A DNA stretch of 64,000 nucleotides from Escherichia coli (GTDB lineage Bacteria > Pseudomonadota > Gammaproteobacteria > Enterobacterales > Enterobacteriaceae), in the NCBI GenBank assembly GCA_031701365.1, contig GCA_031701365.1_4118.1; one strand, given 5' to 3'. The position numbers were made by a program, and so were the translations under genes. The notes beneath the pieces were generated by a model. The model searched no databases, had not been told where the DNA came from, and saw only the letters and a list, made by a program, of their open reading frames with translations. Every line of letters begins with the position of its first letter. Position 1 is the first letter of the stretch. Shown here piece by piece: positions 21,702 to 60,070 of the stretch.

Positions 21702-21729
21702 TTGACTAAATAGTTCAGTACTGTATAAT
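21702..21729 (+). promoter_or_regulatory. CAGTACTG-class promoter (TTGACT...CAGTACTGTATAAT)
   Basis: TTGACT 21702-07, TATAAT 21724-29; 'cttgactaaatagttcagtactg' repeated at 22110 and 22180. Confidence 0.6.
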
Positions 21730-21760
21730 GTTTATATCTTAACTTATATGGCAACTTGAT

Positions 21761-22114
21761 ATGTTTAGTGAATATGAAGAAGCAATAAAACGCAACCTTG
21801 AAGATTATAAATTCCAATTTTATATTTGGGATAAACTGATGAGATTGTGTTTACAGTGGATGGAAAATGAAGAAACTCCTGACCAACGAACTGTTATATT
21901 AAACATCTTGTTACATAAAGATCTTAGTTCAATTAATATTGAAGTTTCTACTTATGTAGGAGAAGATTATAATCCCTATATTTCATATACTTCCCCTGTA
22001 CCAAAGACAGAAGAAGAATATTTTCAAATGAGTACTGTACAAGAACCATTGTTCACTTATGAGTTCTATAAGTACTTGGTTGGTGAATTCAAAAAAATGC
22101 GAATTAATTCTTGA
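21761..22114 (+). CDS. FFQ-motif family protein
   Basis: 'TEEEYFQMSTVQEPL'. Confidence 0.55.
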   Translation: MFSEYEEAIKRNLEDYKFQFYIWDKLMRLCLQWMENEETPDQRTVILNILLHKDLSSINIEVSTYVGEDYNPYISYTSPVPKTEEEYFQMSTVQEPLFTYEFYKYLVGEFKKMRINS

Positions 22115-22180
22115 CTAAATAATTCAGTACTGAGAATATTAATATGTTTAAAGATGAACGTCCAGATTTGTAAAAAGTAC

Positions 22181-22209
22181 TTGACTAAATAGTTCAGTAC
22201 TGATATAAT
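22181..22209 (+). promoter_or_regulatory. CAGTACTG-class promoter (TTGACT-17-TATAAT)
   Basis: TTGACT 22181-86, TATAAT 22204-09; a degenerate copy at 22111. Confidence 0.6.
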
Positions 22210-22214
22210 GAATT

Positions 22215-22557
22215 CCACAATCAGACGTATATGGTGTAAGTTACGTCGATGCTATCCAGAACAAGATCTCTGGTACTCTAGGAAGTGGTGAATGTTAACC
22301 TAGACGGGTTTGATAATTGGACGATAGGCAATTATTACTTGACTAGCAGGTTGAAACTAGAGGTGACAGTCCTTCACCAAACTGGAAAACCGGATGGACT
22401 TTTATTTAAAAGGGTAAGGCGTGGAAATATGTTTACAGAAGTTGCTTTTAGTAGCCTGTACGCACCACGTCAAGGTAGCCGAAAGGTAAGTTAAAACGGG
22501 TGGTTATAAAGCTGAATTAACAGCGGCGTTTAAAAGCGTCACCATCCATTTTTTTTT
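22215..22557 (+). ncRNA. candidate small stable RNA inside the tRNA cluster
   Basis: ~340 nt without a convincing ORF, higher GC, promoter directly upstream, ends in a T9 run (22549-22557). Confidence 0.3.
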
Positions 22558-22573
22558 AATTAAAGTTGGCAAT

Positions 22574-22951
22574 ATGAGTGTTAAAGACATTTCAAAGTAT
22601 GAAGAGTTTCTTAAATCATTTTTGAATTCAAAATTAACGACAGACCATACCAATAACTGGTGTAAAGATAATCATGGAATTCGCATTTTCAAGGAATATG
22701 GTGAATCATTTCTTATAAATGACGATGTAATTGTTTTTGAATCATTTGAAGAAATAAAAAGGACAAATAACACTTTACGTGATATAATAAATAGTATAAA
22801 TGCTCAATACATTACCTTCCAGCTAAGTGCTGATGAAGAAGATGAATTTCAGAAACGTACAGTATATGAAAATGTGTTCCCACATGAATTAAATTCTGTG
22901 ATAATTAAAGTGTTGGATAAGGTTTTTTCTGAAAATACTACTGGACAATAG
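22574..22951 (+). CDS. FFQ-motif family protein
   Basis: 'DEEDEFQKRTVYENVF'. Confidence 0.55.
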   Translation: MSVKDISKYEEFLKSFLNSKLTTDHTNNWCKDNHGIRIFKEYGESFLINDDVIVFESFEEIKRTNNTLRDIINSINAQYITFQLSADEEDEFQKRTVYENVFPHELNSVIIKVLDKVFSENTTGQ

Positions 22952-22970
22952 TTTTCAGTGCTGATATAAT
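22942..22970 (+). promoter_or_regulatory. promoter for the tRNA trio (TGGACA-17-TATAAT)
   Basis: TATAAT 22965-70, 7 nt before tRNA-Ser 5' end. Confidence 0.5.
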
Positions 22971-57466: not shown

Positions 57467-58835
57467 CAATGAACATAAAAAATTAATTGAAAATTTTGAT
57501 GGTTATGTATATATAAAGTCAGAAAAACTTAATAACAACTGTTATATACATTATAATCATCCTGAACGTTATCTTCCAGTCAAAATTGAATTATCTGATC
57601 TTGTTAAAAGTGTTAAAAAAAATAAAAATCAACTAGCTCCACTACGAACAAAAGAAGAAATAGTTGAAATTGTTAGAAATAAATTTATTAATAAAAAACA
57701 ATATTCAATAAAAAAAATTGATTATAATAAAAGAAGTTCTGAGTGTATTGTTCATTATGATGACAATTCTGGAATTACATATACAGTTTCATTACAAACT
57801 TTAATATATAAAAATTGGGAACCAGAGACAGCTAAGCCAAGAAAGACATTGAATATGCATATTGAATATGCAAAGAAAAAATTACATGAATTAGGTCATG
57901 AATTTATAAAATTTAATAGTGATAAAATTGATAAAAAAACATATGTTATTTACAAACATAGCTCAAGAATATTACCATGTGAAATACAATATTACGAATT
58001 GCGTAGATGTGATGATAAATTAATACCTCATTTGACTATAGATGAAATAAAAGCAAAAGTTGAGCATGAAGCATCAATACAAAATGTAATAATAACAGAT
58101 ATTATAGAATGTATAAATTTATCATATTCTAATATAAAATATAAATTACCTGAAAATAATGATATAGGTGGTGAAGTACAATATATAAGTATGATTAAGG
58201 ATGGATTTTCGTTTAGACATAAAAATAATATCAAAACTGATAATTTTTATTATAATTATGGTGTGGAGTTTTGTAAAAAAAATGGTTTGGTATTCATAAA
58301 AGTGATTGAGTATAATAAAAAAATGACAAAATATCATTTTAAAATGCTAAATGGTGAAGATTGGAAACCAACTTATAGCTCTTTGGCACATAGTGGTTCT
58401 TTATGTAAAGGTGGATACCAAAATAATAATGCTGCCCGTGTATATGTGAATAATGACCATTGTGGTGAAGCTGACAATGCTGGGAAAACCATGCAAAAAA
58501 AATTCAATAATAGATTAACGGTTAGAAATAATTCATTTTATAAAAATTATGGTATTAAAAATTTTTGGAAAAATGAATTATTGATTTTATTTAATAATAA
58601 AAATGGTGGTAAATTAGCTACTGAATTGGAAAAAATAATTCATACAACTGCATTATGTGGAAGACCACATGGAAGAACCGGTTATTATGAAAAAGGCGAT
58701 GGGTGCACAGAAACATTCAACAACATCCATCGACCTAAAGTTAACGAAGCCATTAAAAAGTTCTTAGCAGAACATGAAGGTGAGTACATTATCGAACGTG
58801 ATATCAATGGTATTTTTGGTGAAGTAATTTTGTAA
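57459..58835 (+). CDS. AT-rich Lys/Asn/Tyr-rich protein with internal ~40-aa repeats (possible acquired/mobile gene; nuclease role unproven)
   Basis: 458 aa; four repeats of 'x-Y-x-I-K-...-Y-x-I-H-Y'-like module; Cys/His-containing C-terminal region; local composition markedly more AT-rich than flanks. Confidence 0.5.
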   Translation: MYNNEHKKLIENFDGYVYIKSEKLNNNCYIHYNHPERYLPVKIELSDLVKSVKKNKNQLAPLRTKEEIVEIVRNKFINKKQYSIKKIDYNKRSSECIVHYDDNSGITYTVSLQTLIYKNWEPETAKPRKTLNMHIEYAKKKLHELGHEFIKFNSDKIDKKTYVIYKHSSRILPCEIQYYELRRCDDKLIPHLTIDEIKAKVEHEASIQNVIITDIIECINLSYSNIKYKLPENNDIGGEVQYISMIKDGFSFRHKNNIKTDNFYYNYGVEFCKKNGLVFIKVIEYNKKMTKYHFKMLNGEDWKPTYSSLAHSGSLCKGGYQNNNAARVYVNNDHCGEADNAGKTMQKKFNNRLTVRNNSFYKNYGIKNFWKNELLILFNNKNGGKLATELEKIIHTTALCGRPHGRTGYYEKGDGCTETFNNIHRPKVNEAIKKFLAEHEGEYIIERDINGIFGEVIL

Positions 58836-58855
58836 AACAAAAGAGGTTAATTAAA

Positions 58856-59182
58856 ATGAAAAAGTTAATGTTAGTTATGTTAATGTGTTTATCAACAACA
58901 GTGAATGCAAAAACTGAAGCATCAACAACATGTAAATCCACAAAAACTGACACTATCTACAATTTGTATTTGGATGTAACAACACAAACAGCAAAAATAG
59001 ATGGAAAGAAGTTTATGTTTGAAAGTCAAGAAGTATTTAAAGATGGAAGTGGTTCGTATACTATTTTTTCAAATGATAAATTGAATCAAAAATTAAAAGT
59101 TTTTGTTATTAAACCTAATAAGATAAAATATATTATTACCTATAATGGTAAAAATATTGATATGGGTAATTGTGTGTATTAA
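58856..59182 (+). CDS. secreted two-cysteine protein (family member 3)
   Basis: 'MKKLMLVMLMCLSTTVNA|KTE'; 'KIDGKKFMFESQEV'; C-terminal 'GNCVY'. Confidence 0.55.
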   Translation: MKKLMLVMLMCLSTTVNAKTEASTTCKSTKTDTIYNLYLDVTTQTAKIDGKKFMFESQEVFKDGSGSYTIFSNDKLNQKLKVFVIKPNKIKYIITYNGKNIDMGNCVY

Positions 59183-59197
59183 ATATGTTTATAAAAA

Positions 59198-59230
59198 GGG
59201 TTGACTTCGGTCAGCCCTTTTTGCTATAAT
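59198..59230 (+). promoter_or_regulatory. PeSL-like cassette (GGGTTGAC-TTCG-GTCAGCCC + T5; TTGACT-18-TATAAT)
   Basis: Identical to 57171 copy through 'gctataattatttcatcaac'. Confidence 0.7.
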
Positions 59231-59258
59231 TATTTCATCAACTGATGAGGATAACGAA

Positions 59259-60029
59259 ATGACCAGAGAAGCACGCAGCATTCAAATCCAGAAAAACTTC
59301 AACTCCATGATGGTTGCTCTTGAGTGTTTGCTCGATGATAGCAGTACTGTAAAAAGTATGGTTGTCAGTGGTGCTCCTGGTGTTGGTAAGACTTACACCT
59401 TGTCCCAACGTCTCCAGAAGGCTCATGACGCAGCAGAATGGAACGTAGCTACTATCAGTGGTAAGATGACTACACTGGCTCTGTACGAAGTTCTGTACAA
59501 GAATCGTCACAGCACCAACGTATTAGTACTTGATGATATGGATAGCATCTTTGAATCAGAAGATGGTATGAACCTACTCAAAGCTGTTTTGGATAGTGGT
59601 AAGCGTACTGTATCTTATATGACTAGCTCTAAGTACTTGAGCACTAACGGCATTCCTAATAGCTTTGATTTTAATGGTCGCATCGTATTCATTACTAACA
59701 AAGATTTAGCGTTAGATGCTAAAGCTAAAACTAAAATGTCTGCTCATTATGCTGCTCTTATGTCTCGTTCTGTGTACGTGGATTTACAGATTCAGACTAA
59801 AAGTGATATCATGATTCATATTGAAAATGTAATGACTAAGACTAATATCCTTGCATCTAAAGGTGTTAACAGTAACGGTAGTAAAGCAATTCTGAACTGG
59901 ATGTTAAAACATGAAGATAATCTTCGTGCACCATCCCTGCGTATGCCTTTGTTGATTTCAGCAGTATATAACAACAATCCGTATGATTGGGAAGAACAAT
60001 GTGAAAACTTGTTCCTTGAGAAAATCTAA
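59259..60029 (+). CDS. P-loop NTPase (AAA-like ATPase)
   Basis: Walker A 'SGAPGVGKT', Walker B 'VLVLDDMD'. Confidence 0.65.
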   Translation: MTREARSIQIQKNFNSMMVALECLLDDSSTVKSMVVSGAPGVGKTYTLSQRLQKAHDAAEWNVATISGKMTTLALYEVLYKNRHSTNVLVLDDMDSIFESEDGMNLLKAVLDSGKRTVSYMTSSKYLSTNGIPNSFDFNGRIVFITNKDLALDAKAKTKMSAHYAALMSRSVYVDLQIQTKSDIMIHIENVMTKTNILASKGVNSNGSKAILNWMLKHEDNLRAPSLRMPLLISAVYNNNPYDWEEQCENLFLEKI

Positions 60030-60038
60030 TTACATATG

Positions 60039-60070
60039 TTGACAGTACTACCATCGTGTAGTACTATAAT
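60039..60070 (+). promoter_or_regulatory. AGTACT-containing promoter (TTGACA ... TACTATAAT)
   Basis: 'gttgacagtactaccatcgtgtagtactataatggg'; exact -10 ambiguous. Confidence 0.45.

Follow-up and report, generated by a model that had tools for sequence, protein, structure and literature searches.

Phage proteins that bind throughout the phage genome and repress its early promoters are known from phi29 (p6) and SPO1 (TF1). In the stretch of DNA analysed here (contig GCA_031701365.1_4118.1, 64,000 nucleotides; the window, with positions counted from its first letter), the palindromic hexamer AGTACT lies at a fixed place between the two hexamers of a class of phage promoters and, at high density, throughout the sequence. 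The reader that we propose for this word would resemble p6 and TF1 in being one abundant factor that marks the whole genome and blocks the host polymerase at early promoters. However, p6 reads bendability and TF1 hydroxymethyluracil DNA, neither of them a sharp 6-bp palindrome, and the AGTACT phage has had its own genome remodelled so that it bears the word. The Dam/GATC system, with SeqA, MutH and the methylation-sensitive promoters IS10 pIN and dnaA, offers a second comparison. GATC is likewise a short dispersed palindrome, with readers of the methyltransferase and nuclease types, that lies also within a few promoters and whose state changes expression there, but it occurs near chance frequency in E. 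coli, whereas AGTACT is raised 5-19-fold in these phages. Chi, DNA uptake sequences and KOPS are over-represented functional genome words, asymmetric and bacterial. AGTACT shares with them the properties of a dense short word that is found in all frames, selected on DNA, lineage-specific and subject to turnover of its copies, and differs in being palindromic, although the phage purges other palindromes (of the 64 possible with six letters, the window lacks 27).

AGTACT is also the recognition sequence of ScaI and Eco255I, and restriction sites are normally avoided by phages. The promoter-early stem-loop (PeSL) elements of Arbiol and colleagues (2010) are reportedly mobile regulatory cassettes of T4-type phages; the promoters described here resemble them in being repeated early-promoter cassettes that flank small open reading frames (ORFs) in plastic early regions and are common to related phages. 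Repeated promoter-plus-leader cassettes were present, as were separate terminator/promoter overlaps (45090, 56453, 57174 and 59201), but the AGTACT class is defined by a spacer palindrome and a common leader and not by a stem-loop. With the restriction enzymes the word shares its six bases (the ScaI site is AGTACT; PMC8919816) and a specificity as sharp as that of a type II enzyme. Unlike the usual case of avoidance, the ScaI site is strongly enriched here, and neither an enzyme nor a methyltransferase cognate to it was identified among the phage genes. What is unexpected is that AGTACT is in excess genome-wide, under selection and in this clade specifically, and that it also holds a constant position in the principal class of early promoters.

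Judging from sequence comparison, the window covers early genes of a jumbo coliphage of the PBECO4/121Q type (Asteriusvirus), which belongs to the RaK2-like group of roughly 350-kb phages. Pieces of 12 kb and 25 kb matched Escherichia phage PBECO4 and its relatives, including SP27, slurp01, G17 and Sharanji (genus Asteriusvirus), at 95-97% identity over nearly their full length, and the window corresponds to about 168-232 kb of PBECO4 in reverse complement. Nearly all of its genes are small and lie on the plus strand. The scan for TTGACA/TATAAT with at most one mismatch in total and hexamers 16-18 bp apart gave 37-39 near-consensus sigma70 promoters on the plus strand, which is the coding one, as against 2 on the minus strand; the window is accordingly most simply read as an early region transcribed by the host polymerase.

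AGTACT was the most over-represented hexamer palindrome of the window, at 7.7 times the expectation from base composition (the next, TGTACA, reached 2.4 times), and its 167 copies compare with 17.6 ± 4.5 in dinucleotide-preserving shuffles. Copies fell in each of the three reading frames (58, 33 and 46) and between genes (30), with little difference in density (2.5 and 3.0 per kb). Their position relative to gene starts and stops was flat, save for a dip over the ribosome-binding site, and the gaps between them were near-exponential (coefficient of variation 0.93). Neither regular spacing nor helical phasing was found over all sites, the sole feature being a bump at 20-22 bp. Shuffling of synonymous codons left 60.5 ± 4.9 copies. 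The dipeptide usage itself was distorted, with 106 Ser-Thr against 68 expected (Thr-Ser, 70); Ser-Thr was spelled AGT-ACT 58 times against 15 expected, and nAG-TAC-Tnn occurred 31 times against 3. An artefact of codon usage or composition was rejected on the grounds of these shuffles and dipeptides. The selective pressure therefore acts on the DNA word, bends the protein sequence and concerns the density of the word rather than particular places.

The excess extends over the phage genome and is confined to the clade. In five 50-kb blocks of PBECO4 the ratio of observed to expected copies was 5.6, 9.1, 10.8, 10.8 and 4.6. The 250 kb so sampled held 689 copies, from which about 950 are estimated for a whole genome, and the density peaked at 135-160 kb with 27-40 sites per 5 kb. 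The ratio was 7.1 in RaK2, rising to 19 in a promoter-dense stretch, and 15 in GAP32. It fell to 0.18 in the related Pseudomonas phage PA5oct (3 copies in 50 kb), 0.72 in T4 and 0.49 in T5, and one 50-kb sample of E. coli K-12 held 3 copies (ratio 0.26), so the word is about 45 times denser in the phage. Sites were retained more often than neighbouring hexamers, at 71% versus 56% (P = 0.019) against a relative at 85% identity and at 58% versus 36% (P = 0.0045) against one at 80% identity. The individual positions turn over, as 11 of the 92 site positions in five genomes were common to all five and 24 were private to one, and despite this turnover the density was maintained at 59-66 copies per 25-30 kb in each of the five. 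Our results showed that the excess is genome-wide and under selection, and it has the marks of an over-represented functional word, being present in all frames and in non-coding DNA, lineage-specific and maintained. A bias driven by 5-methylcytosine or its repair (Dcm/Vsr type) was rejected, as the deamination products AGTATT (1.08) and AATACT (0.75) were not depleted; the variants found at lost sites were spread over all positions, which also speaks against it. AGTACT is not mentioned in the papers on RaK2, CBB and Sharanji, in the CBB supplement or in the results of keyword searches (the GAP32 paper lay outside this scope), and we found no published description of its genome-wide, clade-specific, selected excess or of its fixed place in an early promoter class. 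As to the other palindromes, the hexamers absent from the window were almost all those with four or more G/C; 23-29 were absent in PBECO4, RaK2 and GAP32 and just 3-7 in T4, T5 and PA5oct. This pattern amounts to a very strong avoidance of restriction sites by a phage that has no hypermodified bases.

Five promoters of the window, at 21702, 22181, 39007, 43317 and 53667, share the word in a fixed register (Table 1), and all five lie within one mismatch in total of the sigma70 hexamers. The full members at 21702, 39007, 43317 and 53667 read TTGAC(A/T), N8, (C/T)AGTACTG, TATAAT with a spacer of 16 bp. The preliminary description of these promoters had given the gap between the -35 hexamer and the box as 10-11 nucleotides, and 8 were counted; it had also assigned G(T/C)TTAT after the -10 hexamer to every member, a sequence present only at 21702, 39007, 39355 and 53667. 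AGTACT occupies -19 to -14 at the four full members and -20 to -15 at 22181, among 37 promoters of the window, and from the genome-wide density of the word chance would account for about 0.1 at one offset and about 0.4 per four-position window. Exact copies of the box CAGTACTGTATAAT start at 21716, 39021 and 53681, those at 43331 (TAGTACTG) and 39359 have one mismatch, and up to two mismatches gave 19 matches in the window against 1.39 expected. One further promoter, at 39355, had been proposed as a member and does not belong: AGCAG precedes its -10 hexamer, and it stands outside the class register because its AGTACT overlaps the -35 hexamer. The copy at 22111, already described as degenerate, keeps the -35 hexamer and the box and lacks a -10 hexamer. 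The AGTACT of this decayed copy is gone in UE-S1 and Turkey3 (CAGTACCA).

The promoter at 21702 is identical in PBECO4, Turkey3 and A4, and UE-S1 differs in the last base of the -35 hexamer, at an overall identity of 80-96%. At 22181 the spacer is 17 bp, with one extra base, and a second AGTACT overlaps the 5' edge of the -35 hexamer, a two-site layout that matches class promoters of GAP32 and RaK2. The three copies at 21.7-22.2 kb have 22 nucleotides in common, TTGACTAAATA(G/A)TTCAGTACTG, and are local duplicates. A class promoter at 22942, overlooked in the preliminary description, reads CAGTGCTGA in the window and CAGTACTGA in PBECO4, Turkey3 and A4; the box itself is CAGTGCTG in the window and CAGTACTG in these three relatives. 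At 53667 the box region, ATTCAGTACTGTAT, is one mismatch away from the 14-bp palindrome ATTCAGTACTGAAT. The class, its register and its conservation are established. A LexA (SOS) box, CTGT-N8-ACAG, was rejected, since 8 nucleotides after CTGT the class promoters show TATA or other bases.

Table 1. Coordinates of the promoters, AGTACT sites and genes discussed in the text. Positions refer to the window unless stated otherwise.
Feature	Position	Strand	Details
Class promoter	21702-21729	+	-35 TTGACT 21702-21707; AGTACT 21717-21722; -10 TATAAT 21724-21729; drives ORF 21761-22114
Decayed copy of class promoter	22111-22140	+	TTGACT 22111-22116; CAGTACTG 22125-22132; GAGAAT where the -10 is expected
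Two-site class promoter	22176-22209	+	AGTACT 22176-22181 and 22196-22201; -35 TTGACT 22181-22186; -10 TATAAT 22204-22209
Class promoter with mutated box	22942-22970	+	TGGACA, CAGTGCTGA, TATAAT; just upstream of the tRNA cluster
Class promoter	39007-39034	+	TTGACA, N8, CAGTACTG, TATAAT, then GTTTATATCAAA; drives ORF 39065-39358
Consensus sigma70 promoter, not a class member	39355-39383	+	AGTACT 39360-39365 over the 3' end of the -35 (TTGACAGTACTG); -10 at 39378-39383
Class promoter	43317-43344	+	TTGACA, N8, TAGTACTG, TATAAT; drives ORF 43391-43717
Class promoter	53667-53694	+	TTGACA, N8, CAGTACTG, TATAAT; drives ORF 53743-54297
Dispersed AGTACT	1-64000		167 copies, 38 of them CAGTACTG; about one per 383 bp
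Two perfect 14-bp palindromes	23749-23762, 23869-23882	.	ATTCAGTACTGAAT; 120 bp apart
RaK2 leader palindromes	1450-1470, 4370-4390, 5257-5277, 9445-9465 (retrieved RaK2 piece)
C5 cytosine methyltransferase	10522-11382		286 amino acids; orthologue of the enzyme behind RaK2 CpG methylation
Sigma70-family factor, phage-encoded	35659-36624	+	Regions 2, 3 and 4; annotated sigma factor in RaK2 and PBECO4

Across the clade, promoters were counted region by region without conditioning on AGTACT, and a box at -19 to -14 or -20 to -15 was scored. AGTACT stood in register in 10 of the 11 near-consensus promoters of a promoter-dense 11-kb stretch of RaK2, in 11 of 28 at 100-150 kb of PBECO4, in 5-6 of 18-21 in GAP32 and in 5 of 37 in the window, and in none of the 25 promoters of the sampled structural and metabolic regions. 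Pairs of AGTACT 20-22 bp apart numbered 18 against about 6.5 expected, and most of them bracket a -35 hexamer. In this two-site layout the second copy often lies at about -41 to -36, abutting or overlapping the -35 hexamer, that is, two helical turns away; with box centres at -16.5 and -38.5 both sites are on one face of the DNA and within the polymerase footprint, as in an operator built from a palindrome in fixed register and often paired. The promoters of GAP32 read aaaAGTACT-TTGACA/TGCAA...AGTACT-(T/A)-TATAAT. A scan of IMG/VR for the exact two-site pattern gave four copies in the 11-kb RaK2 stretch (AGTACTTGACA, N9, CAGTACTGTATAATGT) and one further copy from another 357-kb contig. Among about 38 non-redundant examples the centre of the spacer varies at a constant box register; since AGTACT was a requirement in collecting them, its constancy arises by construction. 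The base at -13 is G in both Asteriusvirus and Alcyoneusvirus, and in Mimasvirus (GAP32) it is T. Members share the leader GTTTAYAT(C/G)AA(A/G)GGG and, within subfamilies, the spacer too. By these sequence features the class is a promoter-plus-leader cassette family common to Asteriusvirus, Alcyoneusvirus and Mimasvirus and older than the genus. Where genes are sparse and promoters dense in RaK2, PBECO4 and GAP32, this cassette is the predominant kind of promoter. These stretches are taken here as "immediate-early", a label that comes from their layout only, and the five promoters of the window are thus outlying members of the main cassette.

The copying of the cassette also bears on the view that there is no promoter-specific regulation at all. 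The word would be favoured everywhere, for example for methylation or self-marking, and would settle in promoter flanks that already favour ACT before TGACA and CTG before TATAAT, while the class would owe its conserved look to the copying of a single promoter-plus-leader cassette from place to place in the early regions, in the manner of the mobile promoter/stem-loop cassettes of T4-type phages. The shared leader and, within subfamilies, the shared spacer agree with this, as do the duplicates at 21.7-22.2 kb and the small share of sites, at most about 10 of the 167 in the window, that lie in or beside a promoter. The flank preference itself is seen elsewhere: CTG stands directly 5' of 8 of 71 TATAAT hexamers in a T5 region without AGTACT excess, where we estimate about 1 to be expected, and tandem promoters of unrelated metagenomic phages read GACTTGACA...(G/C)TACTGTATAAT. 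On the other hand, the AGTA half of the box (-19 to -16) and the GTA upstream of the -35 hexamer hold their position while the central spacer changes, and we know of no role of either in polymerase contacts. A graded context preference would not give the early confinement (10 of 11 versus 0 of 25 promoters), and this view leaves unexplained why sites pair at two helical turns and why non-coding DNA contains 14-bp palindromes. We regard a purely passive word as the main rival explanation and as rather unlikely.

The box keeps its distance to the -10 hexamer fixed, rather than that to the -35 hexamer, and an A-tract precedes the upstream AGTACT, as in an UP element. Both would be expected if AGTACT were a promoter element read by the holoenzyme of the host, perhaps modified by the phage, or by that of the phage sigma factor (35659-36624), raising promoter strength in the manner of an extended -10 or UP-proximal element. 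A phage sigma70-family factor is encoded in the window, and the same architecture recurs in unrelated phages. These are two uncultivated phage families (IMG/VR contigs of 6-43 kb, 40-44% GC) that carry an AGTACT-TTGACA...AGTACT-N-TATAAT promoter; in one of them the two-site promoter stands among tandem strong promoters, each followed by CGGCGCC. No cultured relatives of the two families were found by DNA or protein search, and their recognisable proteins were one terminase and one exonuclease-like protein only. The extended -10 rule (TGnTATAAT, with TG at -15/-14) does not hold here, as CTG-TATAAT puts the TG at -14/-13, one base too near the hexamer, and in GAP32 position -13 is T. An asymmetric polymerase contact does not predict a palindrome, most consensus promoters of the same genomes are without the box, and about 160 non-promoter copies per 64 kb would go unexplained. 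A role as polymerase element is in our view improbable.

Longer palindromes centred on the word were found outside the promoters. The stretch that holds the two perfect copies of ATTCAGTACTGAAT (about 23730-24000) has no called ORF and no Rfam match, and a third related site lies at 23984; over 20-25 kb Rfam gave tRNAs only. One-mismatch copies of ATTCAGTACTGAAT occur at 7670, at 34731 and in the 53667 promoter. In PBECO4, about 2 kb without annotated genes (151.8-153.7 kb), at the AGTACT density peak, contain nine or more sites that resemble ATTCAGTACTGAAT, along with roughly a dozen 8-bp units (CGTCTAGC-like) repeated in tandem; replication might start in this stretch, or it might serve in packaging or nucleation. 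In RaK2, leaders of the early region carry perfect 18-22-bp palindromes centred on AGTACT (e.g., GGGAATCAGTACTGATTCCC) just upstream of the Shine-Dalgarno sequence, and in one gene with such a leader codons two and three are again AGT ACT. These leader palindromes, together with some terminators built from AGTACTGG...CCAGTACT, are what would be expected if AGUACU acted in RNA, as a hairpin apex or as the target of a protein or RNase, for instance in the 5' leaders of early messages. An RNA signal does not need a DNA palindrome, however, the flanks are non-complementary outside those few hairpins, and the promoter copies lie upstream of the transcription start. A role in RNA is accordingly very improbable.

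The flanks of the word also speak to a host protein. The phage DNA might mimic the sites of the nucleoid-occlusion protein SlmA and thereby keep the infected cell from dividing. The hosts of the phages with the excess are Enterobacterales, which we take to have SlmA, while the Pseudomonas host of PA5oct presumably lacks it. The idea is attractive because the SlmA consensus GTGAGTACTCAC has an AGTACT core (PMC3020112) and because cells infected by Sharanji filament, with phage DNA filling the cell (PMC11895373). The central AGTACT is identical and both sites are palindromes, but SlmA needs G1, T2, purine 3, A4, G5 and pyrimidine 6 in each half-site (PMC3020112), and the outer G, T and purine 3 are absent or disfavoured in the phage. 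AGTACT in the window prefers C before and G after it; the preceding base, position 3 of the half-site, is C at 46% and G at 8% of sites, and position 1 is G at 13%. There was no GTRAGYRCTYAC in the window, and half-matches numbered just 5. SlmA mimicry is the least probable of the explanations considered here, and we give it almost no weight.

The preliminary description had taken AGTACT as a hint of an additional regulator's site overlapping the polymerase contacts, with an early-to-middle switch as a hypothesis. The conserved, non-random class, its fixed register and its paired copies bear this out in part; what does not stand is a site private to promoters, since roughly 160 of the 167 copies in the window are without an adjoining promoter. 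Any reader of AGTACT must be global rather than a dedicated promoter regulator, because the word is genome-wide, clade-wide and about eightfold over-represented. The regulator idea is plausible, if unproven, and needs to be recast in this form. The anatomy of a fixed-register palindrome in the polymerase footprint is that expected of a repressor operator, and the anatomy of the dispersed hexamer that of the site of a symmetric reader. We favour, tentatively and at somewhat less than even confidence, one clade-specific symmetric reader that switches off the early class and occupies or marks the phage DNA. In this scheme the listed sites would be host-sigma70 early promoters of a RaK2-like jumbo coliphage, and their box the promoter-embedded form of a word kept at very high density by selection genome-wide. 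The reader, perhaps a dimer that binds DNA or else a protein akin to those of restriction-modification systems, would be specific to the phage clade and would recognise AGTACT, with ATTCAGTACTGAAT as its best site. As it accumulates it would occupy the class promoters, and occupancy would switch off the early class because both sites lie within the RNA polymerase footprint. In the rest of the genome the bare hexamers would serve as weak sites, and by binding them the reader would coat the phage DNA or mark it as distinct from host DNA.

Several results weigh against such a reader. No candidate for it was found: Pfam and PHROGs searches of about 30 ORFs next to the class promoters, the perfect palindromes and the Dam-like methyltransferase gave ORFans, the sigma factor and one Dam-family enzyme and no DNA-binding regulator, and the PBECO4 annotation (about 282 of 348 kb) lists none besides the sigma factor and a "starvation-inducible transcriptional regulator". 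Genome-wide the sites are bare hexamers whose palindromic flanks are barely above chance, and one-mismatch words are enriched just 1.5-2-fold; specificity as sharp as this is met more typically in methyltransferases or nucleases than in repressors. Class members have a leader in common, so descent from a duplicated cassette explains some of their similarity, and part of the box could be plain promoter-strength context because CTG/TATAAT and ACT/TGACA recur in unrelated phages. In the two metagenomic families, which have the same two-site promoter, the excess of AGTACT was just 1.6-3.6-fold in the 2-15 kb retrieved from each contig (a second figure for the retrieved stretches is 1.6-5.8-fold). 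Because no candidate protein was found, it is by inference that we propose the reader's existence, its repression and the purpose of the dispersed sites. YefM and Phd bind GTAC-core sites, and a phmmer search of 1728 ORFs with typed-in sequences of these two proteins gave no match. The specificity of the Dam-like enzyme cannot be inferred from its family, since that family is found in more than 2000 phage records.

More speculatively, AGTACT might be a sequence-based identity mark of the RaK2-like phages, which have no modified base and no phage nucleus, with the same reader timing the early promoters; we consider this unlikely. If true, a phage factor would tell phage from host DNA for transcription shutoff, nuclease sparing, replication or packaging, and the word would be the counterpart, in sequence, of the role of hydroxymethylcytosine in T4. 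The system bears on early-gene timing and on the distinction of self from host DNA in non-nucleus jumbo phages with unmodified bases, and it offers a handle for such work: a 6-bp word with a 14-bp optimum, about 950 copies per genome and conservation across at least three genera. For annotators, a "regulatory motif" in these promoters cannot be read without its genome-wide background. Strong selection can, moreover, favour a palindrome that is a restriction site even where the phage removes palindromes otherwise.

The promoters are closely packed against the genes before them. The TGA stop codons described within TTGAC of the -35 hexamer at 22114, 39358, 34067, 14174 and 45093 are all correct (TGA at 22112-22114 ends ORF 21761-22114 and TGA at 39356-39358 ends ORF 39065-39358; the overlap at 14174 belongs to an ORF of 47 amino acids), and two more were found at 7727 and 57177. 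Such an overlap is present in 6 of 42 TTGAC promoters and in the decayed 22111 copy. "Extreme genome compaction" is apt as a description of these overlaps and not as a special feature, for at this frequency they reflect ordinary tight packing and are expected where a single promoter-length gap separates genes. At 45090-45125, 56453-56488, 57174-57209 and 59201-59236 a terminator and a promoter are fused (AAGGGTTGACTTCGGTCAGCCCTTTTTGCTATAAT), with a UUCG-loop hairpin that holds the -35 TTGAC in its 5' arm, a T-run and then the -10 hexamer; the supplement to the paper on phage CBB gives this design as a terminator.

Among the neighbouring genes, the sigma70-family factor (Table 1), encoded midway in the early region, likely drives the next transcription class and is context only for AGTACT. 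Methylation reported for RaK2 is at CpG only (PMC3622015), and the C5 methyltransferase is already accounted for by that report. Its gene has about 630 codons in UE-S1 and A4 (10750-12630 and 10550-12448 of the retrieved pieces), and in UE-S1, the one scanned, an intein that contains a LAGLIDADG homing endonuclease makes up the difference. The window has six or seven tRNAs: directly after tRNA-Ser, a seventh tRNA-like sequence (21260-21338) gave an Rfam match of 32.6 bits, just over threshold, and none by ARAGORN, and a tRNA-Arg is listed in this region in some related phage records. A lone gene of 384 codons lies on the opposite strand (29708-30862, minus) in the otherwise one-directional early region; at the corresponding position PBECO4 has an equally long gene with the annotation "virion structural protein", and an AGTACT-free gap (28653-30079) that is among the larger ones overlaps the 3' part of the lone gene. 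Another such gap, 57435-59343 (1.9 kb, 26.5% GC), spans a 458-codon ORF (57459-58835), at about whose position the PBECO4 annotation gives "endonuclease", and may mark a recently acquired mobile gene that has yet to adopt the word usage of the genome.

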